Shown here: positions 1,343 through 27,293 of the stretch, in pieces | Layout: the number at the start of each line of letters is the position of its first letter | How positions within the stretch are numbered: position 1 is the first letter of the stretch | Assembly (NCBI RefSeq): GCF_003018255.1 | Contig: NZ_CP027440.1 | Length of the DNA stretch: 64,000 nt | Direction: 5' to 3' (one strand) | Source of the DNA: Escherichia coli | Lineage (GTDB): Bacteria; Pseudomonadota; Gammaproteobacteria; Enterobacterales; Enterobacteriaceae | Notes under the pieces: generated by a model | Databases searched by the model: none | Told to the model about the DNA's origin: nothing | What the model saw: the letters and a program-made list of their open reading frames with translations, nothing else | Program-made: the position numbers and the translations under genes

Positions 1343-1353
1343 CGGAGGCTTTT

Positions 1354-3834: not shown

Positions 3835-3866
3835 AAATACTACCCTTAATTATTAAAGAGAAAAAA

Positions 3867-4601: not shown

Positions 4602-4980
4602 TTTCTTTTTTTGTTCAAATAGTTACTCCGAAGAAAAAATAGAGATAATAAACATTAATAAACCAATATATATAGGTACCAATCAATCAGATAAGGTGCT
4701 TATTACTGCGTGTAATCATTGGGTGCTTAATTCTAGAGATATTATAGACATATTCAATCTAAGTATAAAGCATGATGATTATGGCGAAATAAACAGAATG
4801 TATTATTGGTTACCTTGTGAAATTAGAGGGAGACTAATGTATGACGGAATAGAATGGAGTTTTGTTATCAATGCTGCTGCAACAGCAATGTGGATGAGCA
4901 ATGATAAAGAGATTTACTGGGGATGCAATAAAAAAGCATGCGATAATTTCTTTTTATTACCATATGATGGGATGAGGTAA
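4543..4980 (+). CDS. Putative secreted (periplasmic) immunity protein for the upstream amidase
   Basis: Start is ambiguous (ATG 4531/4543 or GTG 4570) and overlaps the effector 3' end. N-terminus MIKLVIKQKVKALISIVLINFFFCSNSYS has the form of a Sec signal peptide. Small Cys-rich AT-rich ORF. Confidence 0.45.
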   Translation: MIKLVIKQKVKALISIVLINFFFCSNSYSEEKIEIININKPIYIGTNQSDKVLITACNHWVLNSRDIIDIFNLSIKHDDYGEINRMYYWLPCEIRGRLMYDGIEWSFVINAAATAMWMSNDKEIYWGCNKKACDNFFLLPYDGMR

Positions 4981-5085
4981 ATCACAGTTAATAAAGCAAA
5001 AACATTATGGACAAGTGAATTAATCAGATAGTTCAAGCACCTTGAGATTCATTGTATTCATATTTCAGAATAACGGATTATTACA

Positions 5086-6300: not shown

Positions 6301-6356
6301 TGGTTCCGGGATTAAACCGTCTCCGGCCCCGTTCGGTTTCAGGGCCTGCCATCGTC

Positions 6357-9300: not shown

Positions 9301-9683
9301 TTGACGGGCAGGAGCTGGAATATTTCAACCAGAAGGAACGCTGGCAGCGTTTTAACTGGCCGGATGAACAGTGGCAACCCGGCGCATCGCTGAGCTGGAC
9401 CAGTACGCAGGCGATGGAACGCATACTGGCGGATTATCGGGGAAGCTGGAGCCTTATTCGCCTGCTGGAACAGGCGCAGGTGACACCGGTGGACAGCAGT
9501 ACCTTTAAAGTGGTGTGGAAAGCGCAGGACGGCCTGCCGCTGAATTACCTGCTGCGGGTTGAACAGGGTAAAGGGCCGCTGGCGCTGCTGGAACTGAAAA
9601 ACTTCCGCCTGCCGGGACAGGTGTTCCTGACCGGCAGGAGTATGAAGGATGCGGAAGAATACGGGGAAGACGCCGATGAGTGA
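6357..9683 (+). CDS. tssM: TssM (IcmF-family) T6SS membrane-complex protein
   Basis: ~1100 aa. Two TM segments at the N-terminus, a third around WLRITLMSAVCVLAIWGAGM, then a long C-terminal domain. Start is uncertain (GTG 6300 or ATG 6357; the track ORF begins at 6141). Stop overlaps the tssA start. Confidence 0.8.
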   Translation: MTVAVVVALCTFIHRKPALLGVEPGSSQQMYWMAGVIAAGVVFLIIMGVYHLLNRHAAVQSFELHRQLAAGDDYRAVTTKKADSRHPAMVELAAFLRDRYGPFWRRKIRLLLVTGEPEQAEAIAPGLTGQHWLEGDHTVLIYGGRPSTEPDVALLTALKKLRRSRPLDGIIWPLTEEQSRQTAQLDKGWRELINGGKRLGFQAPLYLWQVCDNGDYQTGRPLQSVGCLLSERCTPEQLAAMLEAQTLPLTEQGMSQLLTDNRHDFLLRLAHTLAERGIAHWQSILKPLLAGGAFSSLRLRGLMFSPPLTAVPEAAPHAWLPSPVWAGVTGDNARGRTVGFPWLRITLMSAVCVLAIWGAGMTTSFFANRALVQETSIQTARALDIRLPLSEQLVALHTLQGELERLQYRIREGAPWYQRFGLERNQQLLAAAFPGYAQAANRLVRDVAVDHLQQQLNAFVALPPNSPQRTATGEQRYKQLKALLMTSRPEKADAAFFSTTLMADDLRYAGVPEGVRQSVLPSLLTFWMANLPEHPQWKTSPPPELTGAVRKILLRQIGVRNAENTLYQNVLQQVSRNYADMTLADMTGDTLTESLFSTEQTVPGMFTRQAWEGQVREAIEQVVTARREEIDWVLSDRQQDTSADISPDMLRNRLTSRYFTDFAGSWLAFLNSIRWKKEDSLSGILDQLTLMADARQSPLIALTDTLAWQAAAGRENRGLSDSLAKSAQELFNGKEKTPQQSREGDVPVGPLDKTFAPLLRLLGDKAGGGDSQLSLQTYLTRVTRVRLKLQQVTNAPDPQEMTQQLAQTVLQGKTVDLTDTRDYGSLIAASLGEEWSGFGQALFVRPVEQSWRQVLTPAADSLNRQWQRAIVSHWDQDFAGRYPFKASQNDASLPLLAQYLRDDGRINQFIAANLSGVLKREGRYWVADAMNTQGLTVNPDFIRALNRLRDVADTAFASGDAGIHFELRAKPARDVMKTHLVIDGQELEYFNQKERWQRFNWPDEQWQPGASLSWTSTQAMERILADYRGSWSLIRLLEQAQVTPVDSSTFKVVWKAQDGLPLNYLLRVEQGKGPLALLELKNFRLPGQVFLTGRSMKDAEEYGEDADE

Positions 9684-11286
9684 ACTGTTGCAAAAGCTGA
9701 CCCGTAGCTGTTTTGCCGACCGGGACGCACTGGACTCGGCGCGAACACAGGCGGCGCTGTGGCAGACATGGCTGCTGCCGGTGACGGCAGATACGCCGGT
9801 CGGGGAAGACCCCGGCTACCACGACGATTTCCTGCGTATCCGCGACGAGATGAACAAACTTTCCGGCGCGGATACGGACCTTATCTGCCAGCTTGCCGAA
9901 TCCCTGCTGCTGACGCAGGCAAAAGACGTGCGCATCGCCACTTACTATATCTGGGCGCGACTGCACCGCGATGGCGAACGCGGACTGGCTGAGGGGCTGG
10001 CGCTGTTAGCCGGACTGGTGGAACGCTTCGGTGCGCAACTGCTGCCCTCGCGCCCGGCAAGCCGAAAAATGGCGCTGGAGTGGCTGGCAGGGGAAAAGAT
10101 GCTCGACAGCCTTGCCCGCTACCCGGAAGTGGCAAAAGAGGATTTTGCGAACATTGTTGCCGCTCTTAATCAACTGACGGTTTCCTTCACTGCATGGCCC
10201 GAAGACCAGCATTCCCCCTCCCTGATGCCGCTGATTAACGCGCTGGAATCACGTCTGGCGCAGTCGGGTGGGATGAACGCGGTGGTGCCGCAGAACAGCA
10301 GCGGCGTTCCGGCACCGTCTTCCCCGGTGGATGCGCCACAGGTACAGACCATCACTTCCGGGCGCGACCTGCTCGACCAGGCGAAAGTGCTGGCCCGTTA
10401 TCTGAACGAACAGCCGCAGGGCTGGCTTTCAGCACACCGGCTGATGAAAACCCTGCGCTGGGACACGGTGCATGAACTGCCGCCGGATGTGGACGGAAAA
10501 ACCCGGCTGGCCCCGCCGCGCACAGAATCACGCAACCAGCTTAAGCGGCTGTATGCTCAGCAGAACTGGACGGAACTGCTGGAGCAGGCCGACCTGATGT
10601 TCAGCACCGGCGTCAGCCATTTCTGGCTGGACATTCAGTGGTATCTGCATCAGGCGCTGACTAAGGCGGGCGCACCGTGGGACAGGTGGACAGCGGTTAT
10701 CCGTCAGGACCTGGCGTTACTACTGGAACGCCTGCCGGGGCTGGAAAATCTGGCATGGAACGACGGCACGCCGTTCGCCGATGAGTTGACGCGCAACTGG
10801 ATAGCGCAGCAGGTCATGATGCGGGAAGACGGCGCATGGCTTGCGGGGAAAGCCGCTGTACCGACAGACGACGCCACAAACGACGTACTGGCGCTGGAGC
10901 CGGAAGCGCTGGAGATGGCAGACAGTCAGGGCGTGGAAGCGGCGCTGGGCTGGATACAGACCCGTCCGGGCATCACCACGGCACGCCAGCGCCTGTTATT
11001 GCGACTGCTGATGGCGCGGGTGGCGGAACAGTACGGTAAAAACGAGATGGCGCTCCTGCTGCTGGAAGAACTGGATATCGCCGCACAGGGGCTGACGCTG
11101 ACGCAGTGGGAGCCGGACCTGCTGTTTGAGGTAAAAGCCCGACAGCTGAAACAGCTGCGCCTGCGGGCGCACCGCTATGCGGATAAAGCCCTGCTGAACC
11201 GAAAAATGGAAATCCTGCTGGGAACGCTGGTGACAATAGATCCGGTACGGGCAGCGGTATTGTGTGATACGCAACATAAGGACTGA
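9676..11286 (+). CDS. tssA: TssA (ImpA_N-domain) T6SS baseplate/cap protein
   Basis: N-terminal ImpA_N-like block (...LLPVTADTPVGEDPGYHDDFLRIRDEMNKL...). ATG at 9676 overlaps the tssM stop (ATGAGTGA); an alternative ATG lies at 9649. Confidence 0.8.
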   Translation: MSELLQKLTRSCFADRDALDSARTQAALWQTWLLPVTADTPVGEDPGYHDDFLRIRDEMNKLSGADTDLICQLAESLLLTQAKDVRIATYYIWARLHRDGERGLAEGLALLAGLVERFGAQLLPSRPASRKMALEWLAGEKMLDSLARYPEVAKEDFANIVAALNQLTVSFTAWPEDQHSPSLMPLINALESRLAQSGGMNAVVPQNSSGVPAPSSPVDAPQVQTITSGRDLLDQAKVLARYLNEQPQGWLSAHRLMKTLRWDTVHELPPDVDGKTRLAPPRTESRNQLKRLYAQQNWTELLEQADLMFSTGVSHFWLDIQWYLHQALTKAGAPWDRWTAVIRQDLALLLERLPGLENLAWNDGTPFADELTRNWIAQQVMMREDGAWLAGKAAVPTDDATNDVLALEPEALEMADSQGVEAALGWIQTRPGITTARQRLLLRLLMARVAEQYGKNEMALLLLEELDIAAQGLTLTQWEPDLLFEVKARQLKQLRLRAHRYADKALLNRKMEILLGTLVTIDPVRAAVLCDTQHKD

Positions 11287-12698
11287 TGGCAATGGGAACA
11301 GGCTACTTTCTGGTCAGGGGGGACAAAACCACCTGCGGCGGCAAAATTATTGAAGGCGCGGACGACCATACGATCATGGGTATCCCGCAGGCGCGGGATA
11401 TGGACCGGGTCACCTGCGGCAGATATCCGGGAATGTTTATTATTGTGGGCGGCGTTCCTGAAACAGATATTCACGGCAGGCTGATGGCGGGGACGCTGGA
11501 CAGTCAGAGCAGTTGCCCGTGTAAGGCACGGTTTATTGCGTCAATGATGGATGATACGTATGAGACGGATGACGGGGAAAGTGAAGCGGAACAACATGCG
11601 CAGTCGGCGAAAAAGGATCTGACTTCTGGTTCTGATTCATCCTCTGATGATGTAAAACTGGATTACAGAATTAAATTATCAGGTAATAAGATACTGACGC
11701 CACTGAATATACCTGATTATAAAGAAATGATTAGCGGTGGTAGTACGAAGAATACAGAAAAAATAGATTTTACCATCACAAATAAAGGCGATGAGGCTGA
11801 AGCGCTTTCTCTGGAAGTGCTTGATGGTAATGAAGTGATTTATAGTGAACGGCAGACCGGTAAATATTGTGATAAGGGAGAGCATGCCTGGCAATGGGAT
11901 GGCTACAGTAATCAAGGCATACTGGATACAACTAAGATAAAAAGCAAATCACTACTCGTAAGACTGATTGCTTTATGTGGTGATATGATGATAAAAGTTG
12001 ATTATCCATTGAAAAATGCTGCGAAAGAAGAAGAGTGGGTTGATGTAAAAGTTGACAGAAATAATAAAGTGGTCGATATAACATGGAGATTATCTGTTAA
12101 GGATAGCGGTACAAAAGGCAGTAACCCTGAGTTATCGCCAATACCTTATAGCGATTTAGTTAGTCTTACTAAAAATGGCGTGGAGTTTTACTGGTCACGA
12201 AATGGAAGTCGCGGCGGGGGAATTGGTGGTAATATCGTTACAGCGATTGGGGTTTTTAAAGTAAATGTAAAGGCTGAGATAAATATTACTCCATCTATGC
12301 GAACTTTTGATTTGATATCATCGTTAGATCCAGATATGCAGTCGTCGGTAAGTCTTTTGGGGTTTGAAAAAATATACCATAACTATGGTGGCTATTATAA
12401 TAACAGCAAGGATGAAATAAAGGCTCTTCTATATAGTAATGAAAGATATAAATGGGATAGTGCTCATGAGATGGGACATAAAGTTATGGATAAATATGGT
12501 TCTGAATCATGGACACATAAGGGGACATCCACGCGGGGTCAAAGTACCATCCCTAATACTCCAATGCCATCTTCAGGAGAGATTGATATAATGAAATATG
12601 CAGATAGCTATGCACCTGATAGATATAAGAGATTGGTCGCGGCAGATGAAGATGTTCAGGCATTGATCTGGTTGAGCAGGGTGAGTTTTAATGATTAG
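11286..12698 (+). CDS. PAAR-like domain protein with C-terminal HExxH (zincin-like) putative toxin domain
   Basis: N-terminus (GDKTTCGGKIIEGADDHTIMGIPQARDMDRVTCG...) resembles PAAR/DUF4150 spike-tip domains. C-terminal region is AT-rich and contains HEMGH. ATG overlaps the tssA stop (TGATG). Confidence 0.6.
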   Translation: MAMGTGYFLVRGDKTTCGGKIIEGADDHTIMGIPQARDMDRVTCGRYPGMFIIVGGVPETDIHGRLMAGTLDSQSSCPCKARFIASMMDDTYETDDGESEAEQHAQSAKKDLTSGSDSSSDDVKLDYRIKLSGNKILTPLNIPDYKEMISGGSTKNTEKIDFTITNKGDEAEALSLEVLDGNEVIYSERQTGKYCDKGEHAWQWDGYSNQGILDTTKIKSKSLLVRLIALCGDMMIKVDYPLKNAAKEEEWVDVKVDRNNKVVDITWRLSVKDSGTKGSNPELSPIPYSDLVSLTKNGVEFYWSRNGSRGGGIGGNIVTAIGVFKVNVKAEINITPSMRTFDLISSLDPDMQSSVSLLGFEKIYHNYGGYYNNSKDEIKALLYSNERYKWDSAHEMGHKVMDKYGSESWTHKGTSTRGQSTIPNTPMPSSGEIDIMKYADSYAPDRYKRLVAADEDVQALIWLSRVSFND

Positions 12699-12713
12699 AA
12701 TAATTGTTTTTTA

Positions 12714-13115
12714 TTGTTTTTTTTGAGTGGGTGTACTTCACAAAAAGAGTATTCCAATATAGTCAGGATTGAGAATAGATGCTCCTCAGATATCGATGTC
12801 TTTATTCAGGGATATGTTTCCGGTTCTACGCTGATTTATCAGCATAATATACACTTGCCAGTTGGTGATAGTGATGTATTAGTATATTTTTCCACGGCAG
12901 ATATTGATGATGGTTTTAAATATGAGGGGGCATTCATGATATATAAAGATAGCCGCGGTGAATTGGATTATCCATTCACCATTTCATTGTCAGGGCGCGA
13001 AAAAAAATTTGGGAAGAATGACTTAATTAGATTATCACGAGATATTTCAACAAAAGACGACAGAAAATACGGAGTTATAAGATATATAATCGACAGTCAG
13101 GAAATTTGCCCGTGA
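12714..13115 (+). CDS. Small AT-rich ORF, candidate immunity protein; 5' end probably disrupted by a homopolymer frameshift
   Basis: The track ORF starts at a TTG. An upstream ATG at 12691 (overlapping the PAAR stop) encodes MIRIIVFYCFF and then hits a stop after a T8 tract. One extra T would give MIRIIVFYCFFLSGC..., a lipoprotein signal with lipobox. Confidence 0.4.
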   Translation: MFFLSGCTSQKEYSNIVRIENRCSSDIDVFIQGYVSGSTLIYQHNIHLPVGDSDVLVYFSTADIDDGFKYEGAFMIYKDSRGELDYPFTISLSGREKKFGKNDLIRLSRDISTKDDRKYGVIRYIIDSQEICP

Positions 13116-13324
13116 TGTTTTAAGTTATTCGTTCACAATTATTAATTATTGCCTATTATGTAAGGTAAATTTAATTTGGTTCAGAAAAGACAAGAATACA
13201 TCATTATTAAAATCAATAAGTCAGCAACTATCCATAATATATTCACATAGAATAAATTTAACTATGATGTTACTTCTACACCTGCATGATATTCACTTTC
13301 AATGAAAGGAAGATAATCCCTCCG

Positions 13325-15085
13325 ATGGACGATCTAACCCAACGCTACTACGAAGCCGAAATGCGCTACCTGCGTGAAGCGGGGAAAGAATTTGCGCAGG
13401 CTTACCCCGACCGCGCCGCGATGCTCAATCTTGATAAACCCGGCGCACGCGATCCCTATGTGGAGCGCCTGTTCGAAGGCTTCGCTTTTTTAATGGGTCG
13501 CCTGCGTGAAAAGCTGGATGACGACCTGCCCGAACTGACCGAGGGGCTGGTCAGCCTGCTGTGGCCTCACTACCTGCGAACCATCCCGTCACTTTCCGTG
13601 GTTGAACTGTCGACAGATCACCGGCAGATGAAGCAGAGCGAAACACTGAGTAATTTTCAGGTATTGTCGCGTCCTGTTGGCGAGCGCAGAACCCGCTGTG
13701 TCTACAGTGCTACGCGGGATATCACGCTGCATCCGCTGGCGCTGCCGGACGTGTCATTGCAATATGAACCGGACGGGCGCTCGGTTATCCGTCTGCGCTT
13801 TGAATGCGGCCCGCTGGTTGGTGACTGGTCACAGATCGATCTATCCCGTTTGCCGCTCTATCTCAATGCCGACAGCCCGGTGGCCTGTGCGCTGCACCGG
13901 GCTTTAACGCTTGGCACCCAGCAGTTCTGGCTGCGTCTGCCGGGGCAGGAACGCCGTGTGCTGGACGCGCACTTTTCCCCGATGGGTTTTGATGACAATG
14001 ACCGACTGTGGCCAAAAGGCGAGTCGGCGTTCAGCGGCTACCAGTTGCTGCTGGAGTATTTCACCTTCCGCGAAAAGTTTATGTTTGTGGCGCTGAACGG
14101 GCTGGAGAACGTCATCTGGCCGGAAGGGATGAGCGGCTTTGAGATTGACGTGGTGCTGAGCGAGAACTGGCCTCACGACCTGCCGTTTGACAGCGATAAT
14201 ATCCGTCTGCACTGCGTGCCGGTCATCAACCTGTTCCCGCTGGAAGCCGATCCGTTACACCTTTCGCCACTGGAAAACGAATTTCTGCTGCGCCCGATGC
14301 GTATTCAGGACGGGCATACCGAGATTTATTCCGTCGACAACATTATTTCTTCGCGCCATACCGGCAGTCAGGCGTATGTCCCGTTTTCCAGCTTTCGTCA
14401 CCGGGGCGGGATGCTGCGCCACGATGCACCGGAACGCTATTACCATACGCGGGTTAAGCGCGGCCCTTCCGGCCTGCATGATACCTGGCTGATTCTGGGC
14501 GGCGATGCGTTTGATTCCGACCGGATGCTGGAGGATGAAACGCTCTCTTTAAGCCTGACCGGCACTAACGGACAGCTTCCCCGTAAGGCTTTACAGAGCA
14601 CGCTGCTTGATACGCCAGTTCATGCCTCACAGAACGTCCTGCGGGTGCGCAACCTGTGCGCCCCGACGCAGCCCTGTTATCCCCCGGCGCGTGACCGCTT
14701 CCACTGGCGGGTGCTCAGCCACCTCGGTTCTAACTTTCTTTCAATGATGGATAACGCCGAAATTCTGCGCGGCACGCTGGCGCTGTACGACTGGACCGAA
14801 AGCGAGATGAACCGCCGCCGTCTGTCGGCGATTGTCGACGTTCAGCACAGCCTGATACAGCGTTTTGAAAGAGGCTTTCTGCTGCGTGGCGTGGATATTC
14901 AGGTGACGCTGGACAGCACCGGCTTTGCCGGAGAGGGTGATATCACGCTGTTTGGCGAACTGCTGCACCGCTTCTTTGCACTGTATGCCGATATCCACTT
15001 ATTCACTCAACTGACCTTAATTCTGCAACCCACAGGAAAGTGCCTGCAATGGACAGAGCATCACAGCCAGCGCGTACCGGGCTGA
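13325..15085 (+). CDS. tssF: TssF (ImpG/VasA family) baseplate protein
   Basis: N-terminus MDDLTQRYYEAEMRYLREAGKEFAQAYPDRAAMLNL matches the conserved TssF N-terminal pattern. The track ORF begins 13 codons upstream at 13286. Confidence 0.8.
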   Translation: MDDLTQRYYEAEMRYLREAGKEFAQAYPDRAAMLNLDKPGARDPYVERLFEGFAFLMGRLREKLDDDLPELTEGLVSLLWPHYLRTIPSLSVVELSTDHRQMKQSETLSNFQVLSRPVGERRTRCVYSATRDITLHPLALPDVSLQYEPDGRSVIRLRFECGPLVGDWSQIDLSRLPLYLNADSPVACALHRALTLGTQQFWLRLPGQERRVLDAHFSPMGFDDNDRLWPKGESAFSGYQLLLEYFTFREKFMFVALNGLENVIWPEGMSGFEIDVVLSENWPHDLPFDSDNIRLHCVPVINLFPLEADPLHLSPLENEFLLRPMRIQDGHTEIYSVDNIISSRHTGSQAYVPFSSFRHRGGMLRHDAPERYYHTRVKRGPSGLHDTWLILGGDAFDSDRMLEDETLSLSLTGTNGQLPRKALQSTLLDTPVHASQNVLRVRNLCAPTQPCYPPARDRFHWRVLSHLGSNFLSMMDNAEILRGTLALYDWTESEMNRRRLSAIVDVQHSLIQRFERGFLLRGVDIQVTLDSTGFAGEGDITLFGELLHRFFALYADIHLFTQLTLILQPTGKCLQWTEHHSQRVPG

Positions 15086-16128
15086 CCGACCGGCTGGCCC
15101 CGGATATTGCGCGGATCAATTTTTACCGTTTTTGCCAGTTGCTGGAACAGAGCCCGCAGAACGCGCCGCTGGGCAGTACCGACAGCCCCGCCACCGATGC
15201 GGTGCGCTTTCGTCCTCATCCAGGTATGGGCTTTCCGGTCAGCGAGTTAAAAAACGTTGAACGTGACGTGGGCAATCCCGACGCGCCCCCCACGGTGCGC
15301 ACCACTTTTCTCGGCCTGTACGGCGTGGATTCGCCGCTGCCAACCGCCTATCTGGACTACATTACCCAGCGTCATGACGGACATGACGCAGTGATGGCGT
15401 TTCTCGATATTTTTAACCATCGCTTTATTACTCAGTACTACCGCATCTGGCGCAAATATAACTACCCGGCGTCGTTTGAAGCAGGTGCCGTGGATGACAT
15501 TTCCCGTTGTCTGCTGGGACTCATCGGGCTGGGTATTCCCGGCAGCGAGAACCATATCGCCACGCCGGTATCCCGTTTTCTGGCCCTGCTCAGCGTGATG
15601 CGCCTGCCGACGCGCACGGCGGAAGGCGTTACGGCACTGGTGGGACTGCTTGCCCCGCTGACGAAAGCGACGGTGGTGCCTCATGATCCGCAGCCTGTAA
15701 TTCTCCCGGCCCCTGCGGGTCTGTCAAAAAATTCACGCATCAGCCTGAAAACGCGAACGCTGCTGGGGCGTACCGGTACCGACGTCAACAGCCAGTTGCT
15801 GCTGAAACTGTATACCGAAGATGCCGCAGAAGCGCGTGGCTGGCTGCCCGGCGGGCAACTGCACAGCGATTTGCTGGTGCTGCTGCGCGTTTATCTGGGC
15901 TGGCGCTGTCAGGCCCGTCTGCAACTGACGCTGCCCGTCAGCCTGTTGCCTGCTGCCCGGCTGGGAAAACAGCGTGTACAGATTAGCCGTACCGGCATCC
16001 TTCGCGCCTCCTTTGCCGCGCCCGCGACCGGAACAGTGACGGTCAGTCTGGGGCGTTATCAGGGATTAATACCCGCTTTTTCCATTCGTAACAGGGAGAG
16101 TATGACTCATGTTTCCTATTCGTTTTAA
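15049..16128 (+). CDS. tssG: TssG baseplate protein
   Basis: N-terminal ...INFYRFCQLLEQ... is typical of TssG. ATG at 15049 follows SD AGGAAAG and overlaps the tssF 3' end. Confidence 0.8.
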   Translation: MDRASQPARTGLTDRLAPDIARINFYRFCQLLEQSPQNAPLGSTDSPATDAVRFRPHPGMGFPVSELKNVERDVGNPDAPPTVRTTFLGLYGVDSPLPTAYLDYITQRHDGHDAVMAFLDIFNHRFITQYYRIWRKYNYPASFEAGAVDDISRCLLGLIGLGIPGSENHIATPVSRFLALLSVMRLPTRTAEGVTALVGLLAPLTKATVVPHDPQPVILPAPAGLSKNSRISLKTRTLLGRTGTDVNSQLLLKLYTEDAAEARGWLPGGQLHSDLLVLLRVYLGWRCQARLQLTLPVSLLPAARLGKQRVQISRTGILRASFAAPATGTVTVSLGRYQGLIPAFSIRNRESMTHVSYSF

Positions 16129-16645
16129 ACGTCCGGCGTTGCTCTGTATGGCGATGCTGACGGTTGTTCTGAGTGGCTGCGGGCTGATTCAGAAAGTGGT
16201 GGATGAATCGAAAAGCGTGGCCTCAGCCGTTTTCTACAAACAAATCAAAATACTGCATCTCGATTTCTTCTCCCGCAGCGCCCTGAATACGGATGCGGAA
16301 GATACGCCGCTTTCCACGATGGTGCATGTCTGGCAACTGAAAACCCGCGAAGATTTTGATAAGGCGGATTATGACACCCTGTTTATGCAGGAAGAGAAGA
16401 CGCTGGAGAAGGACGTACTGGCAAAACACACCGTCTGGGTAAAACCTGAAGGCACGGCATCCCTGAATGTGCCGCTGGATAAAGAGACGCAGTTTGTCGC
16501 CATTATTGGGCAGTTTTATCACCCGGATGAAAAAAGCGACAGCTGGCGTCTGGTGATCAAAAGGGACGAACTGGAGGCCGACAAGCCGCGCTCGATTGAA
16601 CTGATGAGAAGCGACCTGCGACTGCTGCCTCTCAAGGATAAATAA
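16109..16645 (+). CDS. tssJ: TssJ outer-membrane lipoprotein
   Basis: 178 aa. Signal peptide with lipobox (MLTVVLSGCGL). Size and position between tssG and tssE. Confidence 0.8.
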   Translation: MFPIRFKRPALLCMAMLTVVLSGCGLIQKVVDESKSVASAVFYKQIKILHLDFFSRSALNTDAEDTPLSTMVHVWQLKTREDFDKADYDTLFMQEEKTLEKDVLAKHTVWVKPEGTASLNVPLDKETQFVAIIGQFYHPDEKSDSWRLVIKRDELEADKPRSIELMRSDLRLLPLKDK

Positions 16646-16648
16646 CCG

Positions 16649-17077
16649 ATGGCGACACCTTCCTTATATGAAATGCTGACGTTCAGTTTCAGCGGCGAGT
16701 TACCGCTGGAACAGGTCAGTGAGCGGGATCAGCTTATCCTTTCCGTGATGGACAATATGCAACGCATTATCAACTGTCGGGCAGGCACACTGGCGCATTT
16801 GCCGGATTACGGTCTGCCGGATCTCAGCCTGATCCATCAGGGGATGGCTGCGGGTATTCATAGCCTGATGCGCCAGATTGAAGAAACGCTGCTGCGTTAT
16901 GAACCACGCCTGAATCAGATACAGGTGGAGTTACTGCCCCAGCCCGGTCCGGGGCATCTTAATTACCTGATCCACGCGCAGCTTCCCGATACCGGCTGGA
17001 TACGCTTTGATGGCGTATTTTCTCCGGAAGGACGAATTGTTCTGCGTCATCTCAAACAACAGGAGCGGGCGTACTGA
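16649..17077 (+). CDS. tssE: TssE (gp25-like) baseplate protein
   Basis: 142-aa protein of gp25/GPW25 size class. Stop overlaps the next gene start (TGATG). Confidence 0.75.
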   Translation: MATPSLYEMLTFSFSGELPLEQVSERDQLILSVMDNMQRIINCRAGTLAHLPDYGLPDLSLIHQGMAAGIHSLMRQIEETLLRYEPRLNQIQVELLPQPGPGHLNYLIHAQLPDTGWIRFDGVFSPEGRIVLRHLKQQERAY

Positions 17078-18453
17078 TGGCAAGTAACGCGAATTTTATC
17101 AGCCAGTTCGTCATGGGCGGCGATCCCTGTACTTATAAGGAATCCGGTGAACTGCAGGCTGAAATGAGTAAACTGACTCACCCGGCCCGACCGGATGTGG
17201 ACTGGCGTCAGGTGGAAAAACTCTGCCTCGCGCTGTTCCGGCAAAATGGCGTGGAACTACAGACGCTGGTCTGTTACGTGCTGGCAATAACCAGACGGCA
17301 GGGGCTGGCAGGGATGGCAGACGGACTCGGTTCACTGGATATACTGCTCCAGCGCTGGGCTGACTTCTGGCCGGTACAGGTACATTCCAGAATATCACTG
17401 CTCAGCTGGGTCACAGAAAAAATGCAGCAGGCACTGAGAACGCTGGATATTCAGTATCAGGATCTGCCGCAGATCTACCGTTGTGTACAGCATCTTTCCG
17501 CCATCGAAACCACGCTGCAACAGTGTGAACTGTGGCATATGACGAAGCTGGACGTATTGTCCGGGCAGTTTCGCAATGCGGCTCTGCGTCTGGAACGGCT
17601 GGCGCCTCAGGGAGCGGAAACCATTATCACTCCCCCTGAATTACCCCGCCGGGAAATGAATCAACCGAAAAAGTCAGAGGAAAGTCCACAGCCGGTTTTT
17701 GCAACCAGATCCGTTCAGCAAAACGATAAGGATGCCAGTCCACCCGTGCCATCCCCTGAAATCTCCCGGCAGCGGACATGGCCGATATTTATGGCCGGAA
17801 TGGTTGTGATGGCCGGTCTCGGCGGAACAGGATTATGGGGCTGGTCGCAGCTTAATCAGCCGGACGCGCTAATCCAGCGAATACAACTGTCTGTCATGCC
17901 GTTGCCGCAGTCGCTGGAGAGCGGCGAACTGGCAAAGCTGGATGTAAAGGATAAGGCGCTGCTGGCTCAGGACAGAACAATTGCGGCAAGTCAGATGCAA
18001 CTGGAGCAGTTAAACAAATTGCCTGCCCGCTGGCCACTGGAGCAGGGATATCGCCAGCTACGCCAGCTTGATGCCCTGTGGCCGGATAATCCTCAGGTCA
18101 GGGCGCTGAACGCGCAGTGGCGCAAACAGCGGGAGCTGAGCGCCCTGTCTGCTGAGGCACTGAATGGCTATGCTCAGGCGCAGAGCCAGCTACAGCGCCT
18201 GTCGGCGCAGCTGGATGCACTGGATGAACGTAAGGGGAGATATCTGACCGGTTCGGAACTAAAAACGGCGGTGTACGGCATCCGGCAGTCGTTAAAGGAG
18301 CCGCCGCTGGAAGAACTGCTTCGGCAACTGGAAGAGCAAAAACAGACCGGAGAGGTTTCGCCAACGCTGTTGACGCAAATTGATACCCGGTTAAATCAGT
18401 TGTTGAATCGCTATGTCATTTTACTGGATACGAAGGTGGAACAAAGTCAGTAA
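17077..18453 (+). CDS. ImpA_N-domain, membrane-anchored T6SS accessory protein (TagA/VasL-like)
   Basis: N-terminal ImpA_N-like region, one hydrophobic helix (WPIFMAGMVVMAGLGGTGLWGW), and a C-terminal Q/L/E/R-rich region with heptad-like character. Last gene of the + strand cluster. Confidence 0.6.
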   Translation: MASNANFISQFVMGGDPCTYKESGELQAEMSKLTHPARPDVDWRQVEKLCLALFRQNGVELQTLVCYVLAITRRQGLAGMADGLGSLDILLQRWADFWPVQVHSRISLLSWVTEKMQQALRTLDIQYQDLPQIYRCVQHLSAIETTLQQCELWHMTKLDVLSGQFRNAALRLERLAPQGAETIITPPELPRREMNQPKKSEESPQPVFATRSVQQNDKDASPPVPSPEISRQRTWPIFMAGMVVMAGLGGTGLWGWSQLNQPDALIQRIQLSVMPLPQSLESGELAKLDVKDKALLAQDRTIAASQMQLEQLNKLPARWPLEQGYRQLRQLDALWPDNPQVRALNAQWRKQRELSALSAEALNGYAQAQSQLQRLSAQLDALDERKGRYLTGSELKTAVYGIRQSLKEPPLEELLRQLEEQKQTGEVSPTLLTQIDTRLNQLLNRYVILLDTKVEQSQ

Positions 18454-18660
18454 ACATCGGGGGATTTATGTACCAATAAGGGATATGTGACCTTGCCATT
18501 TTTTAAAATGGAGTCTCTGTGTACAAAAAAGAGAGGAACAGGCCATTCGATCTACTCGTTGATTCACATCAGATAATGAGTGTATATTTCGGTAGATAGC
18601 TTGGGTTCGGGAACAGTGAATACCTTAAGTTTCAAAAGATTGGATTAACCTCTTGACTGT

Positions 18661-18674
18661 GGCCCCCGCAACCA
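18661..18674 (+). repeat. 14-nt segment identical to the 3' end of initiator tRNA-fMet (GGCCCCCGCAACCA); putative island attachment-site remnant
   Basis: Exact match to the acceptor-stem 3' strand plus discriminator and CCA of E. coli tRNA-fMet as I recall it. No full tRNA is present in the window. Lies at the boundary between the T6SS cluster and the downstream region. Confidence 0.55.
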
Positions 18675-18692
18675 ATTTATTAGAATGCTGAC

Positions 18693-18728
18693 AAACCGCA
18701 ATGTGTTCTACAAATTGCGGTTTTTTTG
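18693..18728 (+). terminator. Rho-independent terminator ending the T6SS operon
   Basis: Inverted repeat AAACCGCAAT / ATTGCGGTTT followed by TTTTTTT. Confidence 0.6.
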
Positions 18729-18753
18729 TATTTAAAATCTTTGTTCGCTGAAC

Positions 18754-19710
18754 TCACAACACGTTTTTTATCTCCCTTCCTGCGAAGTAATCAATTATCG
18801 ACTGGGCAACGTGTATCCCGGTTTGCTGGTATGACTCAACGGTGGCGGCCGCGATATGCGGCGTTGTAATGATATTTTTGGCATGTAGCAGTGGGCTAAA
18901 TTGCGCCAACGGTTCAGAGCTAAACACATCCAGCGCCGCAAACACATTTCGTTCTTCAATCACCTGAAGTAAAGCGCCCTCATCCAGCAACTTTCCCCTT
19001 GCGGCATTGATGATCAGAGCACCATTGCGCATCATCGACAAATATTTATGACTAATGAAGTTCTCCAGCTCAGAAGAAAAAGGCAAAAGAACAATGATGA
19101 CATGCGACTGCATAAAGATATCTTCAATTGATACAAACTGAACTCCAGCTTTGTCAGCAACCTGATAGTCGGGTTGTTTGTCAAAAGCTAAAAGCTCAAC
19201 ATCAAAACCAGATAACCTTTTCGCCAGTGTTTTGCCAATATTGCCGTAGCCAAGCAGGCCAATACGTTTACCTTGTAACTCGCAGCCATGCGACTCACCC
19301 CAATAACCATTTTGCATTGCATGATAGCTACCGGGGATATTTCTCATGCTCGCAAAAATAAGACCGATGATAAATTCCGCGACTGCGTTTGAATTAATCC
19401 CAACAGCATTATTGACCACAATACCTGATTGTCGAGCCGTATGAAGATCAATATTATCAATCCCTGTCCCGAATCTCGATATTATTTTCACTCCTGGTAG
19501 TCGCGATAACGTATCCGCTTGATAACAATCTTTTCCGGCAATGACTGCGCAAATAGATTCTCGTAATACTGTGGATTCTGATTTAACCAGATGCTCCACA
19601 TTATTCTTGATAATAAGGTTAAAATGATTTTCTCTTAGCAGCTTGCTGGCAGAAACACAACGCGCTGAAAAGCTGGGAACGGTGACCAGAACGTTTTTCA
19701 TAGCTGACAC
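18754..19710 (-). CDS. D-isomer-specific 2-hydroxyacid dehydrogenase family protein
   Basis: 318 aa. NAD-binding motif GLLGYGNIGKTLAKRL. Low-GC gene. Confidence 0.7.
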   Translation of the reverse strand: MSAMKNVLVTVPSFSARCVSASKLLRENHFNLIIKNNVEHLVKSESTVLRESICAVIAGKDCYQADTLSRLPGVKIISRFGTGIDNIDLHTARQSGIVVNNAVGINSNAVAEFIIGLIFASMRNIPGSYHAMQNGYWGESHGCELQGKRIGLLGYGNIGKTLAKRLSGFDVELLAFDKQPDYQVADKAGVQFVSIEDIFMQSHVIIVLLPFSSELENFISHKYLSMMRNGALIINAARGKLLDEGALLQVIEERNVFAALDVFSSEPLAQFSPLLHAKNIITTPHIAAATVESYQQTGIHVAQSIIDYFAGREIKNVL

Positions 19711-19771
19711 TCACATCAATGAACGCCACCCCAAAAGATGGCGTGACCGGTTACTGTTTTATATTCTAAAA

Positions 19772-20368
19772 TTATGAGTTTGCTTTAATACCGAGCGCAC
19801 CTCCTGGATGATATAAGCCGAAATCAGCACGAGTAAACTTTTTCAATTCGGAGAGCGCAAGCGCCACCGCATCACCAACAACCAGAACGACTGTTGATGA
19901 GCATGACGGCGCTAAACCTAAATTATCCGCCTCACTTTTTACGGGAATTTCAACGGATAAATCACAACTTATCGCAAGCGATGAGCGATGACTGCGGGTA
20001 AAGGAGATCAAATAATTACCCATTTTTTTCAGACTAGGTAGTGTTGCCAGGATTTCTGTCGTCTCACCACTGTTTGAAATAAGAATAACAACATCATCTT
20101 TCGCCACCATCCCAAGATCGCCGTGTACGGCTTCAGTACCGTGAACAAAAAACGAGGGAGTTCCAGTGCTGGCAAATGTTGCGGCGAGTTTTCGGGCAAT
20201 AATACCGGACTTACCGACACCAATAAAAACAACTTTCCCCTGACAAGACTGTAATACTTTAATTAAATTTGCGACCTCCGAAAGGGGGGAATCAATAACT
20301 TCTTCAACTGCTTTATGTTCGTTACGCATAAAATGTTTAATGAGATGGATAAGATCCGTACTGTTCAT
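19772..20368 (-). CDS. SIS-domain sugar-phosphate isomerase (KpsF/GutQ-like, no CBS domains)
   Basis: 198 aa. SIS-like block VVFIGVGKSGIIARKLAATFASTGTPSFFVH...ILISNSGETTEIL. Confidence 0.65.
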   Translation of the reverse strand: MNSTDLIHLIKHFMRNEHKAVEEVIDSPLSEVANLIKVLQSCQGKVVFIGVGKSGIIARKLAATFASTGTPSFFVHGTEAVHGDLGMVAKDDVVILISNSGETTEILATLPSLKKMGNYLISFTRSHRSSLAISCDLSVEIPVKSEADNLGLAPSCSSTVVLVVGDAVALALSELKKFTRADFGLYHPGGALGIKANS

Positions 20369-20370
20369 TT

Positions 20371-21546
20371 TTATTTTCCTTGATTAATATTTTTAATTAC
20401 ACTCGCAAGACGCGTAAGCCCCATATATAATTTTTCTCGACCGCAGGCCAGGTTCAGACGAAGGTAGCCCTCCCCCTCCGTTCCATAGACATTCCCCGCC
20501 ATAATGCCCACTTTGCCTTCATGAATTAATCGACTGTAGAATTCATCAAAGGAATAACCAATAGCAGAGCAATCTATCCACGAAAAATAGCAACCATCAG
20601 CTGGCCTTACGATCAATTCTGGAGTATTTTCGTTCAGATACTGCTGGGTGAATTGAATGTTAGAGGCGATATGTGCCTTTAATGACTTTAACCATCCCTC
20701 ACATTCATTATAGGCAACAATGGTTGCAATTATATTCAGTACTGATGGGGAGTTTACGAAATCGCGATACCTCGATATCGTTCTGAACTTATGATTATAA
20801 TCCTCGTCAGTTGAAATCAGATACGATCCTGTTAGCGCAGGAACATTAAATGTTTTCGATATCGAGTTAAATACCACTACTTTTTCTTTTTTTATTTTAA
20901 GCGCGGATGTAAAGCTACGATTAAAAACAAAATCACTATGAATTTCATCTGAACATAACCAGACATTATGCCTTGTACAGCTTGTAGCGATTTTAAGCAG
21001 TTCTTCTTCCGACCAGACTGTTCCTGTCGGATTATGAGGATTACATAATAACACCATCTTTGCGCTTTTAATCTTAAGATCAAAATCTTGCCAGTTGATA
21101 GCGTAGCCCCCCTCATTTTTTATAATCAAAGAGGCTGTCAGAATATTTCGCTCGCTATGTTTAATTACATCAAAAAATGCATTATAGACAGGTGTAAAAA
21201 CGAGAATATTATCACCATGCGATGTCAATAACTCTATTGCCTTTGCAATAGAGTACATCACACTGGGGCTATAGGTTATCCATTCAGGTTTAATGTCTGT
21301 TTGATATTGTTGATGATACCAGTTTACTATCGCATTCAGATATTCACCATGTTGCCAACGACTGTACCCTAAAATCGGGTGTTCCAGGCGTTTTTTTAAT
21401 GCTCTGGTGATAGCGTCTGGTATCGGAAGATCCATATCTGAAATAGAGAAGGGTAATACATCTTTTACACCAAATCTGTCCTCGCAAAAGTCCCATTGGG
21501 TGCAATATGTTCCTTTACGGGAAATAGGAGTATTAAAAATATCCAT
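20371..21546 (-). CDS. PLP-dependent aminotransferase class I/II, MalY/PatB-like C-S lyase
   Basis: 391 aa. Motif CNPHNPTG and a lysine-containing SISKTFN block typical of this family. Confidence 0.7.
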   Translation of the reverse strand: MDIFNTPISRKGTYCTQWDFCEDRFGVKDVLPFSISDMDLPIPDAITRALKKRLEHPILGYSRWQHGEYLNAIVNWYHQQYQTDIKPEWITYSPSVMYSIAKAIELLTSHGDNILVFTPVYNAFFDVIKHSERNILTASLIIKNEGGYAINWQDFDLKIKSAKMVLLCNPHNPTGTVWSEEELLKIATSCTRHNVWLCSDEIHSDFVFNRSFTSALKIKKEKVVVFNSISKTFNVPALTGSYLISTDEDYNHKFRTISRYRDFVNSPSVLNIIATIVAYNECEGWLKSLKAHIASNIQFTQQYLNENTPELIVRPADGCYFSWIDCSAIGYSFDEFYSRLIHEGKVGIMAGNVYGTEGEGYLRLNLACGREKLYMGLTRLASVIKNINQGK

Positions 21547-23126
21547 CAGCGCATCCCCATGTAGTTATCCATATCCCTACGCAGGGCGATGACTTTAGTG
21601 CCGATAATGACTTGTAGGGTATTTTGATCAAGTTTAACAACCGCAATCCCGCCAGCTCTTTTTATTGCAACTTCATCAATCAATCCCATATCTGCGATTG
21701 TTAAACGTAAACGAGTTACGCAATTATCCAGTGACTTAATATTCTCTTTACCACCAAGTGCCTTAACCATCTGCTCCGCTGCTTGCAACTCTGATTTATC
21801 AAGAGTTGGGGTATCCGCTATAGCCGTATCTTCGTGAGCGTTCAGCGTGACAGGACTGGACTCTTCACGTCCTACGGTCATCAGGTTAAATTTGAGAATG
21901 GTCCAACGGAACACAAAGTAATAAATGAAGAAATAGGCCACTTCAACACACACCGCGATCGGCCAACCTGTTCTTGTGCCACGCAATACGCCAAAGCTAA
22001 TAAATTGAATCAGATCGCCAGTAAATCCCATCTTCACGCCCATATATGGCAAGACCATGTTGGCGAATCCATTCATAAAGGCATGGAAGACAAACAGCAG
22101 CGGACTGACAAATAAGAACAGAAATTCAATCGGTTCGCTGACGCCACCAATAATAACCGTAAGCACACCGGAAATAAGCAATGCTTTGATAGCCTTTCTG
22201 TTTTGAGCATGAGCAGTGCGATACATGGCCAGTGCAGCACCAGCCAGACCGTACTGAATCATCAGTTTGCCCTGCTCCATTTTCCCCGCCAAATCCAGCG
22301 GAATGACCGCATTCTCTTTGACGTACGCCATAAACATGTTCAGGGTGCCGTAATACTCTTCGCCGCCAATCACAGCCGAACCGCCGATTGGCGTAAAGCG
22401 GAACACTGACGTCACCAGATGGTTTAAGCCAAAAGGAATCGTCACACGTTCGGCAACTGCATAGAAGAAATAACCAACAGGACCGGAAGTTGATATCCAG
22501 TGGCCAATGAGCATGAAGAGATTGAAAAATGGCGGCCAGATAAAAGGAATGATCAGACCAAATCCACTCATCACAATCAGTGTAATGATAGGCACCAGAC
22601 GTGGGCCGCTATAAAAACCTAATGATTCTGGAATGCGTAAATTAACGATCTTTTTATACATGCTGGCGACTAATAACCCAGCAACAATTCCCCCTAACAC
22701 GCTGGTATTGTAGGACTGGATCCCCAGAATGATGTTTTGCCCATGTGTCGACATTTGGTCAGCAACGACCAATAAGTCGTGCTGTTTAAGATAAAAGTTC
22801 GTTCCCAGATGCATCGCCATAAAACCAATTAAGCCAGAAAAAGCACCATAGGCTTTATCCTCTTTATCTTTTAATAATCCTAAGGGAATCGCTATCGCAA
22901 ACAATACAGGTAAATTAACAAAGGCAAACAAACCAAGACTAACAATGAAATCAAGTATGGTTTTAATTATTGGAATAGCCAGAAATGGAATTAACTTTGC
23001 CATATCATCACTGGCTAAACCACTTCCCAGCCCTAGCATCATGCCACATACACTTAGCAGAGCAATGGGATACATAAATGCCTTCCCCAGGCTCTGAAAA
23101 AAACTCCAGGCTTTCTTTTGTTTCAT
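21546..23126 (-). CDS. PTS glucose-family EIICB component
   Basis: 526 aa. Polytopic membrane domain plus C-terminal EIIB with NCVTRLRL phosphorylation-site motif. Confidence 0.8.
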   Translation of the reverse strand: MKQKKAWSFFQSLGKAFMYPIALLSVCGMMLGLGSGLASDDMAKLIPFLAIPIIKTILDFIVSLGLFAFVNLPVLFAIAIPLGLLKDKEDKAYGAFSGLIGFMAMHLGTNFYLKQHDLLVVADQMSTHGQNIILGIQSYNTSVLGGIVAGLLVASMYKKIVNLRIPESLGFYSGPRLVPIITLIVMSGFGLIIPFIWPPFFNLFMLIGHWISTSGPVGYFFYAVAERVTIPFGLNHLVTSVFRFTPIGGSAVIGGEEYYGTLNMFMAYVKENAVIPLDLAGKMEQGKLMIQYGLAGAALAMYRTAHAQNRKAIKALLISGVLTVIIGGVSEPIEFLFLFVSPLLFVFHAFMNGFANMVLPYMGVKMGFTGDLIQFISFGVLRGTRTGWPIAVCVEVAYFFIYYFVFRWTILKFNLMTVGREESSPVTLNAHEDTAIADTPTLDKSELQAAEQMVKALGGKENIKSLDNCVTRLRLTIADMGLIDEVAIKRAGGIAVVKLDQNTLQVIIGTKVIALRRDMDNYMGMR

Positions 23127-23157
23127 GTGGGTTATCTCATATAAATGTTATATATAA

Positions 23158-23982
23158 TTAGTCCATTAATACTTTGGTACGAATAGAGAGATATAGTTTT
23201 TCTTCTAAAATTAATTCATATTTAAAAGTGGCATACAGATACCGTTCAATTTCATGAATTGCGCGCTGTAACAGGATGTCCTTTTCAAGAAACTGTTCAT
23301 AGATATCACCAATATCTTTCTGTTTTATTTTTTCATTGCATAACACGCGACTTGAAAAATATTTAAGGTGCATCATAAATCTGGAATAGTTAAATGAACT
23401 TCTGTCCACCTTTCTGTTATAAACAACTTCAATAAGCTCCGTGATTATTTGCGACAACTCAATAATCCGTACTGATTCATAATCAACTGAATTTTCATAA
23501 TTATTTAAAATATGCAATGCTATAAAACCAATCTCATCATCAGGAAGTTGAACGCTGAATTGCTCATTAATGATAGTTAATGCATCGCGACTTATCGCAT
23601 ACTCTGCTTTGTACAACGCTTTGATTTCATCAAGGAAAACATTATTAATTTGTATACCTGAAACTACTCGGGATATTGCATTCGAAATGTGATCCGCAAG
23701 AATCAATAGTAGCGATGGATTGAGATTTTTTTCGAGATTTTTCTCCGCATATTGCACTATTTTTTCGGCAACAAAAATATACTCAATATCCACATGTTCA
23801 ATCAATTTGTAGAGTTTATTTTTTTGTTCGTTTCTGACATAAAAAATCCGGTTAGCCGGATGTTCAGGGACCGACATTCCATATTTTTTGTTATAACCGA
23901 CGCCAGGTCCAGAAATGATAACCTCCTGTCCATTCATCGATGCCTGTACACAATTATTGTTCATGACTTTTTCGATGATCAT
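23158..23982 (-). CDS. BglG/LicT-family transcription antiterminator (CAT RNA-binding domain plus PRD domains)
   Basis: Start taken at MIIEKVMNNNCVQASMNGQEVIISGPGVGYNKK (CAT domain signature) with SD GGAG 7 nt upstream. The track ORF extends 19 codons further upstream, into the leader hairpin. Confidence 0.75.
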   Translation of the reverse strand: MIIEKVMNNNCVQASMNGQEVIISGPGVGYNKKYGMSVPEHPANRIFYVRNEQKNKLYKLIEHVDIEYIFVAEKIVQYAEKNLEKNLNPSLLLILADHISNAISRVVSGIQINNVFLDEIKALYKAEYAISRDALTIINEQFSVQLPDDEIGFIALHILNNYENSVDYESVRIIELSQIITELIEVVYNRKVDRSSFNYSRFMMHLKYFSSRVLCNEKIKQKDIGDIYEQFLEKDILLQRAIHEIERYLYATFKYELILEEKLYLSIRTKVLMD

Positions 23983-23993
23983 TCCATGACTCC

Positions 23994-24075
23994 AAAAAAA
24001 AAGGCAAGGCACGTCAGAAGTAATAATTACTTCAAACATTGCCTTGCCTGATTTAACAGTTACAAGATGATTAAC
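23994..24075 (-). promoter_or_regulatory. Leader intrinsic terminator with overlapping RAT-like element upstream of the antiterminator gene
   Basis: On the minus strand: AGGCAAGGCA, a loop containing the palindrome GAAGTAATAATTACTTC, TGCCTTGCCT, then T9, directly abutting the SD. Upstream TTGTAACTGTTAAATCAGGCAAGGCA resembles the RAT consensus. Confidence 0.5.
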
Positions 24076-24239
24076 TAATGCGTATACATTACACGGAATT
24101 GTGCTTAATTAAAGAGATGGTCGGCTTATTTTTCAAGCCGACATTCAAATATTCGACATCAGTCACAAAACCAGCATCTAATATTCATGAAAATGTTATC
24201 TATTCAACGAAATATAAATTCATTGAATAAATAAAAACA

Positions 24240-25493
24240 TCATCCCCTTCTCGCCAGCGTCGCCCCATCGGCAAAATACGCTTTAATCCCCGCAAGAATA
24301 GACTCCGCAACTTCCTGCTGGAAAGTCGCCGTTTTCAGTTTACGTTCTTCCTCAACGTTACTGATAAACGCCGTTTCGACCAGAATGGAGGGAATATCTG
24401 GTGCCTTTAGTACGGCAAACCCGGCCTGTTCAACTTGATTTTTATGCAGCTTGTTGATTTTACCGAGCTTATTCAGCACCGCTTTACCAAACTTCAGGCT
24501 GTCGGCAATGGTCAGCGACTGCACCATATCGAACATGGTGTGGTCGACATAGCGGTCACCGCTTTTGCTCACGCCACCAATCAAGTCCGAGGCGTTCTGG
24601 GTTTGTGCCAGATATTTTGCCGCAGTACTGGTTGCACCTTTGGTTGAGAGCGCAAACACAGAGGAACCGCTCGGCTGACGACTGGTAAAGGCGTCGGCAT
24701 GGATAGAGACAAACAGGTCAGCACGCTGTTTCTGGGCTTTTGCTACGCGCACTTGCAACGGAATGAAGATGTCTTCATTGCGCGTCATGTACACCTTCAT
24801 ATTGCCCTCTTTCTCGATCAGAGAGCGCAGACGGCGAGCTATTTGCAATACCACGTCTTTTTCGCGCGTTTTGTATTTCCCCACCGCACCGGAGTCTTCG
24901 CCACCGTGGCCAGGGTCAAGCATAATGACAATAGGACGATCGCGCCCTGCTTTACCCGGTTGTGGACCACTTTGTGCTGGCGGCACCTGCTTTTCGAGGT
25001 CGCCTTTGTTGTAATCCTCCAGCAGCGCCAGCAGCGGGTCCTGCATATCCTGTGCATTGGCCGGATAGAGGTCCATCACCAGACGCTCTTTAAACCCGGC
25101 GACCGGCGCAAGGGCAAACAGCTGCGGTTTTACGTTTTGCTTTAATTCAAAAACCATACGTACGGTTTGCGGGTCAAATTGCCCGACGCGCGCCGACTTG
25201 ATGAACGGGTCGTCAGCGCGGATTTGCGCAGCCATCCCCTTGAGTACCGAGTTCAGGTTTACATCTTCGATATCCACCACCACGCGTTCAGGATTACTCA
25301 ACGCGAACTGCTTATATTTCAGCTGACGATTTGATTCTACCGTCACGCGGGTGTAGCTGGACGCAGGCCAGACGCGCACCGCCACGACCTGGCTGACCGC
25401 AGCCAGGCTGACCTGACTTACGCTCAATAGCCACATGGCACCCGCGCCTTGCAGTAAACGACGACGGCTGATTGCAGTGTTGGATCCTGACAT
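24240..25493 (-). CDS. amiC: N-acetylmuramoyl-L-alanine amidase AmiC
   Basis: 417 aa. Tat signal [15 protein letters not shown]. Colinear with K-12 amiC-argA. Confidence 0.9.

Positions 25494-27056: not shown

Positions 27057-27293
<237 letters not shown>

Follow-up and report, generated by a model that had tools for sequence, protein, structure and literature searches.

A tRNA-fMet 3'-end remnant behind an Escherichia coli T6SS cluster as the probable attR-type scar of the metV island

Introduction

Why does the 3' end of an initiator tRNA stand behind the last gene of a T6SS cluster, in DNA that holds no tRNA gene? The question is raised by a 64,000-nt stretch of Escherichia coli DNA (the window), for which an earlier note had proposed that a 14-nt match to tRNA-fMet is the attR-like distal repeat of a tRNA-targeted island whose intact tRNA lies upstream. 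From the comparisons reported here, we consider it highly probable that the 14-mer is an attR-type scar of a tRNA-targeted genomic island, namely of the T6SS module of PAI-metV.

The island itself is already known. PAI-CFT073-metV is a curated island at metV (c3385-c3410) (PMC6315130, PMC2660368, PMC3032704), with 32 kb, 25 CDS, 53% GC, no transposase and 0 integrases (PMC6315130, PMC3573123, PMC2660368, PMC3032704). A T6SS 'downstream of metV' was also noted in E. coli W, where it represents ETSS2 (PMC3032704), and the c3405-c3410 PTS block occurs without the T6SS in E2348/69 and SMS-3-5 (PMC2831201). The window carries another strain's copy of PAI-CFT073-metV, with the same locus, the same gene order and near-identical sequence, and no substantive difference.

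Gene content of the window

The window comprises, in order, tssH through the VasL-domain gene, the tRNA remnant, a PTS/sugar operon of five minus-strand genes, amiC, argA, and recD, recB, ptrA and recC. The distal c. 18.5 kb of the T6SS cluster (1..18453, plus strand) were assigned from the open reading frames and from the RefSeq annotation of the collinear strains S88 and JNE23-011, and comprise the 3' part of tssH, vgrG, cargo, tssM, tssA, a PAAR gene, tssF, tssG, tssJ, tssE and the VasL-domain gene; the cluster begins at tssB, c. 7.8 kb upstream of the window. The VasL-domain gene (17077..18453, plus strand; Pfam ImpA_N and VasL domains in its homologues) is the last T6SS gene.

Between this gene and the remnant lie two further elements. 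A gene for a regulator of the Ros/MucR family is represented by its first 31 nt (18519..18549, plus strand), recognised by alignment to E. coli 503025 (locus L006), in which the gene is intact (182 aa); its remaining 664 bp are deleted in the window, with the junction at 18549/18550. A microhomology, TTCGA(A), is found at both ends of the 664-bp deletion in the intact version. The regulator gene (PF05443) also follows the VasL-domain gene in Salmonella and in the K-12-type E. coli island. The second element is the island-side right arm, or P arm (18550..18660, plus strand), which abuts the remnant; it has a homologue in Salmonella (locus L018), adjoins the remnant in conserved form in every island-bearing E. 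coli locus irrespective of the downstream sequence, and is absent from island-free genomes. No matches were obtained for the regulator gene and the right arm against phages, or for the regulator protein against PHROGs and NCBIfam.

Downstream of the remnant, the PTS/sugar module (18754..24039, minus strand; 5.3 kb) corresponds to CFT073 c3405-c3410 and encodes a 2-hydroxyacid dehydrogenase, an SIS isomerase, a MalY/PatB aminotransferase, a PTS EIICB component and a PRD antiterminator. It is absent from K-12, where homology to the window resumes at the stop codon of amiC (24240..25493, minus strand), the first core gene past the variable region. The claim of the earlier note that the 14-mer marks the island boundary thus holds for the T6SS module and not for the variable region as a whole, in which the PTS operon still precedes amiC. 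In a search for a second tRNA remnant with up to 3 mismatches allowed, the matches did not exceed chance (9 found vs 7.5 expected) and none was located near 24040-24240; as no repeat family occurs at the PTS/amiC boundary either, the PTS module has no tRNA repeat as its border. Positions 18575-18599 in the right arm form an inverted repeat of 25 nt (80% complementary) with 24200-24224, at the end of the PTS module next to amiC; this is probably due to chance, since the left arm of the island is absent from PTS-only genomes.

The GC content is 55-62% in the T6SS core genes, 31-37% in the cargo patches, 34-44% in the PTS module and 50-56% in the flanking core; the switch from T6SS to PTS values is located at the remnant, which agrees with two modules of separate origin. 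Within the T6SS cluster, the low-GC patches at 4001-5000 (31%) and 12001-13000 (37%), after vgrG and the PAAR gene, probably represent swappable effector/immunity cargo; their gene content differs among the window, S88 and JNE23-011. In the flanking core, the gap between argA and recD (27040-27280) holds c. 185 bp more than that of S88, with a near-repeat of the argA 3' end (27040-27080 vs 27196-27236) on both sides of REP-like palindromes.

The tRNA-fMet remnant and the terminator behind it

The remnant, GGCCCCCGCAACCA, is located at 18661..18674 (plus strand) and matches the final 14 nt of K-12 metV (77 nt) without a mismatch, as it does those of metZ and metW. In standard tRNA numbering, we take it to represent positions 63-76, i.e. 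3 nt of the T stem, the 3' strand of the acceptor stem, the discriminator base and CCA. It is the single match in the 64-kb window when 1 mismatch is allowed, for which 0.04 matches are expected from shuffled sequence. It starts 207 nt past the stop codon of the VasL-domain gene, and a hairpin begins 18 nt downstream of it. No tRNA gene was predicted by ARAGORN in the whole 64 kb, and an Rfam scan of 18300-18900 (E up to 10) returned only meaningless eukaryotic miRNA and snoRNA noise and no known RNA family; the 14-mer is without tRNA function now.

The hairpin is formed by the arms AAACCGCAAT (18693-18702) and ATTGCGGTTT (18714-18723) and runs into seven T residues (18721-18727). The stretch folds at -23.7 kcal/mol (z = -4.3 vs shuffles), and hairpin and T7 run together represent an intrinsic terminator (18693..18727, plus strand); a simple pattern-based terminator scan gave no match here, because the loop is long and interrupted. 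In Escherichia whittamii and in 597 genomes of E. coli, intact metV is directly followed by the same sequence; what serves in island-free genomes as the terminator of the metZWV operon stands here behind the T6SS operon. In all these respects the earlier note was accurate: it had read the 14-mer as the tRNA-fMet 3' end just past the last T6SS gene, had seen no full tRNA gene in the window, and had placed an intrinsic terminator directly behind.

Intact metV upstream of the T6SS cluster

The closest genome, E. coli JNE23-011, is collinear with the window over positions 1-59086 at 99.1-99.5% identity, and its recC is 100% identical. In every related genome examined (S88, JNE23-011, 503025, and loci L010 and L014), intact metZ, metW and metV genes are found upstream of the T6SS cluster and share the orientation of the remnant, as the earlier note had anticipated. 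The order mltA-metZ-metW-metV is on the plus strand, and in JNE23-011, S88 and further genomes the distance from the end of metV to tssB is 632-636 bp; by collinearity with JNE23-011, the end of metV lies c. 8.5 kb (8.46 kb) upstream of window position 1.

The resulting order, mltA-metZWV-[island]-amiC-argA-recD, is the K-12 interval with an insertion. In K-12, as the earlier note had stated, metZ-metW-metV lie beside amiC, at a distance of 73 bp from metV, with neither T6SS nor PTS genes between them.

The mismatches to JNE23-011 are unevenly distributed: of 119 over window positions 15720-27000, where identity is 99.5%, 78 fall within 19000-20000, in the dehydrogenase gene. Because of this cluster the best match to 17800-19600 reaches only 97.2%, and from its sequence the stretch looks like a recombination patch.

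Four states of the metV-amiC interval

Among 5,426 complete E. coli genomes, the interval between metV and amiC was found in four states. In state A (c. 3,480 genomes), metV is followed by the K-12 trailer and amiC. State B (597 genomes; e.g. E2348/69) has metV joined directly to the sequence of the window from 18675 onward, i.e. to the PTS operon, without T6SS, and then amiC. State C (c. 1,100 genomes, made up of 944-951 intact copies plus IS-interrupted ones such as those of ST131 with ISEc12) is the arrangement of the window, of CFT073 and of S88, with metV, T6SS, remnant, PTS operon and amiC. In state D (250 genomes), metV is followed by the T6SS, the Ros/MucR gene, the same right arm, GGCCCCCGCAACCA, the K-12 trailer and amiC.

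The breakpoints between these states coincide to the base. In state B genomes, homology with the window begins at query base 562, corresponding to window position 18661 and hence to base 1 of the 14-mer, and the homology of state A genomes to the state D junction likewise starts at base 1 of the 14-mer. One island arm with its 14-mer is thus joined to two chromosomal flanks, the PTS type and the K-12 type, and each flank behind the remnant is what follows intact metV in island-free genomes; therefore the junction has the signature of an attR site (a P-O-B' structure). The two flank types in E. coli could be linked by a single rare crossover at short homology.

The junction is stable across island lineages. 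CFT073 is 99.6% identical at 100% coverage across window 18100-18900 (VasL-domain gene, remnant and dehydrogenase gene), and lineages whose VasL-domain gene is 81-82% identical to that of the window keep the same junction. Such VasL genes are found in four E. coli loci with a heavily deleted T6SS, in which tssB and tssC are joined to distal genes (L010, L011, L014 and L015); even here, the island terminates with this arm and the 14-nt remnant. Two apparent exceptions proved to be insertion sequences: 'short' matches in ST131 genomes have ISEc12 between the VasL-domain gene and the remnant, and a K-12-type trailer broken off early in H158 is only an IS200 insertion. ISEc12 (IS21 family) was located in ST131 strain 5392 (L007 4522-6824) and lies at the same place in other ST131 genomes.

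When one genome per species was scanned for the junction of metV with ATTTATTAGAAT, it was found only in E. whittamii; this trailer is therefore not a general enterobacterial flank of metV. E. whittamii Sa2BVA5 (locus L009) is in state B at roughly 90% identity, with the PTS operon directly after metV and no T6SS. Since this is about the divergence of the species, the PTS-type arrangement is old, or was exchanged between species.

Length of the direct repeat

The earlier note had given the length of the match correctly as 14 nt; the actual repeat is longer, and its length depends on the chromosomal background. In genomes with the arrangement of the window, an exact direct repeat of 41 nt (18661..18701, plus strand) comprises the metV 3' end and 27 nt of trailer, with its other copy at the left end of the island: in S88 and JNE23-011, intact metV is followed by ATTTATTAGAATGCTGACAAACCGCAA, which is identical to window 18675-18701. 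Past the 41 nt, the two copies differ wholly in the 13-nt hairpin loop and then share TTGCGGTTTTTT. In the K-12-type background, the repeat is only the 17 nt GGCCCCCGCAACCAATT, to 18677.

As the left-end trailer matches the trailer in the window, a version of the metV trailer and terminator belongs to the island itself at its left end, and this island-borne sequence is conserved between the E. coli and Salmonella islands. The first 27 nt of the chromosomal trailer are identical to the island trailer in state C, with its PTS-type flank, and different in state D (GCTGAC vs ATCAGA). With 27 nt past the tRNA, the identity exceeds the usual length of an integrase core, and it probably arose by gene conversion between the repeats, or from kinship of the island trailer with the PTS-type chromosomal trailer; for the resemblance of the two trailers, gene conversion and delivery of the PTS operon by an earlier, related island are both possible.

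The orthologous island of Salmonella enterica

Contigs followed from a VasL-domain gene of 68% identity led to an orthologous T6SS island in the same metV-amiC interval of Salmonella enterica. At its right end, the VasL-domain gene is followed by the Ros/MucR gene, a homologous right arm, the remnant GGCCCTCGCAACCA, a K-12-like terminator and amiC-argA-recD; the remnant carries one substitution, which fits a scar under no constraint. That this remnant is followed by a K-12-like trailer points to the K-12-type flank as the older state and to the PTS-type flank as derived. Other T6SS loci of Salmonella have further genes downstream of MucR, and the right arm is not a truncated part of these. In those loci, which lie at another site (L012/L013 10045-11725; L017 6781-8461), the VasL-domain and Ros/MucR genes are followed by genes for a Cas1-domain protein and an AcrVA2-like protein; the Cas1-domain protein (283 aa, PF01867) is solitary, and no CRISPR context is visible in its flank.

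The left end of the Salmonella island shows mltA, two tRNA-fMet genes and a left arm homologous to that of E. coli, including the terminator copy, followed by an integrase gene 270 nt past the tRNA, a TraI_2_C fragment and tssB. The integrase (403 aa; L023 4716-5927, S. enterica GCA_008809095.1) is a tyrosine integrase that matches NF007246 over residues 1-393 with 487 bits (cutoff 434), and its Pfam domains, Arm-DNA-bind_3, Phage_int_M and Phage_integrase, are typical of P4-family island integrases. The gene is intact in one of the four loci; in the other three, codon 108 is a premature stop.

E. coli is without this 3.3-kb integrase segment, with c. 515 bp of AT-rich sequence in its place; neither a whole nor a partial integrase gene was found in the E. 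coli island loci and the window (best tblastn E = 0.24). The earlier note had suggested looking for an integrase next to the intact tRNA: there is none in E. coli, and the orthologous Salmonella island has one after its tRNA. Since the E. coli and Salmonella islands are c. 78% identical in DNA, they could derive from one ancient shared insertion rather than from independent integrations. One ancient insertion followed by a large number of exact losses, and repeated integration, are equally possible.

Origin of the junction

Of the features that characterise tRNA-targeted islands, the locus has an intact tRNA gene in the same orientation, a distal repeat, empty sites in genomes of the same species and a distinct GC content; an integrase beside the tRNA in E. 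coli and a circular attP or excision form were not found. The attR-like repeat with an intact tRNA upstream, as proposed in the earlier note, is supported by the repeat itself, by metV and by the base-exact empty sites.

For the formation of the junction, we propose that an integrase-carrying T6SS island recombined through its attP into the 3' end of metV, in a Campbell-type event mediated by a tyrosine integrase. Its attP would have comprised the tRNA-fMet 3' end (last 14 nt), some bases of trailer and a terminator copy of its own. At the left junction, metV would have been kept intact, completed and terminated by island-borne sequence, and the right junction would have received the displaced tRNA 3' end with the original chromosomal trailer and terminator, so that the old metZWV terminator would now be placed to end T6SS transcripts and to insulate the convergent PTS operon. 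The integrase module would later have been deleted in E. coli, as would the Ros/MucR gene in the lineage of the window. That an integrase of the Salmonella type made the junction, and the order in which the T6SS and PTS modules were acquired, are points that we infer. With its integrase module lost, the island would now be fixed in place in E. coli and subject to vertical inheritance, exchange by homologous recombination, or deletion.

Chance as the source of the 14-mer, unrelated to metV, is practically negligible. The match is short, which would speak for chance; it is nonetheless expected 0.04 times even with 1 mismatch allowed, the identity runs on to 41 nt including the metV trailer, and synteny breaks at exactly its position in c. 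4,000 genomes. The 41-nt repeat and the base-exact empty-site breakpoints refute a chance match. Very improbable, too, is that a fourth tRNA-fMet gene once stood in the tandem array, lost its body when the T6SS DNA was inserted into it, and left the 14-mer as its tail. With metZ, metW and metV in a tandem array, extra copies are conceivable, and Salmonella has two copies at the locus; the empty sites, however, show three copies in E. coli and two in Salmonella, the last joined directly to the trailer, a four-copy allele was not seen in the loci read, the lack of an island-free genome with an extra complete copy at this position among the 5,426 speaks against it as well, and the island-borne trailer and terminator at the left end and the integrase would be left unexplained.

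Somewhat less improbable, and still unlikely, is that the T6SS entered without an integrase, by RecA-dependent or short-homology Campbell recombination through a copy of the metV flank, and that the Salmonella integrase is an unrelated neighbour. The 60-100 nt in the left arm that resemble the metV trailer and terminator, and the 41-67 nt of homology available in the PTS-type background, would accommodate such an entry, as would the lack of an integrase from the E. coli copies and of observed circular or tandem forms. The K-12-type background, however, shares only 17 nt, too short for efficient RecA action, and has its junction at the identical base; the same base is used in Salmonella, where a P4-like integrase stands in the expected place, inside the conserved left arm and before tssB. 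Integration at the metV 3' end by an integrase since lost from E. coli is hence the reading that we prefer.

Whether such an island still moves was addressed by searches for its mobile forms. A synthetic attP (right arm, core and left arm) was matched at a coverage of at least 80% in 0 of the 5,426 genomes, assemblies being a weak test of excision, and neither an attP-like junction nor a tandem copy of the island was found in the same 5,426 complete genomes. No copies of window 18100-18900 were found on plasmids, and no phage copy of the island end either; mobility is therefore historical and not demonstrated. It is doubtful that the integrase-less 30-kb island is a satellite, excisable and re-integrable at metV in trans by a P4-like integrase, with the remnant as a live attR. 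If it were, the integrase would come from the type of the Salmonella orthologue or from an E. coli paralogue elsewhere, and the two junction types and c. 4,000 empty sites would reflect repeated site-specific gain and loss.

Relation to other islands and significance

The closest parallel is Salmonella SPI-19, a T6SS island between functional serX and a scar of its last 15 nt, interpreted as insertion at the tRNA 3' end (PMC2907695). Both are T6SS islands with a functional tRNA and a 3'-end scar; SPI-19 differs in its target, serX, in the phylogenetic group of its T6SS, and in a large inversion that separates the scar from the intact tRNA.

Islands with P4-family integrases, such as the HPI at asnT and the PAIs of strain 536, are inserted at tRNA 3' ends and carry the integrase directly after the tRNA. 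Like them, PAI-metV has an intact tRNA on one side and a short direct repeat of the tRNA 3' end on the other, deviates in GC content and varies in its occurrence among strains. The integrase after the tRNA is matched only in the Salmonella orthologue and is wholly lost from the E. coli copy. PAI-metV further differs in that the repeat starts only 14 nt from the tRNA end, and in that the island brings its own tRNA-operon trailer and terminator.

In the papers searched, the primary description of the island (Lloyd et al. 2007) not among them, no description of the 14-, 17- or 41-nt repeat or of a two-module split based on it was found. The remnant is real but ordinary, a textbook attR scar of a known island, and leaves the current understanding of genomic islands and of T6SS unchanged. 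For PAI-metV, the integrase-bearing Salmonella orthologue explains the tRNA site of an island that is catalogued as integrase-free. With the scar as a boundary exact to the base, PAI-metV divides into two modules of independent acquisition, a T6SS island of high GC content with attL/attR ends and a PTS/sugar operon of low GC content without repeats; this boundary is useful for scoring the presence or absence of the island in ExPEC and for the design of clean deletions.
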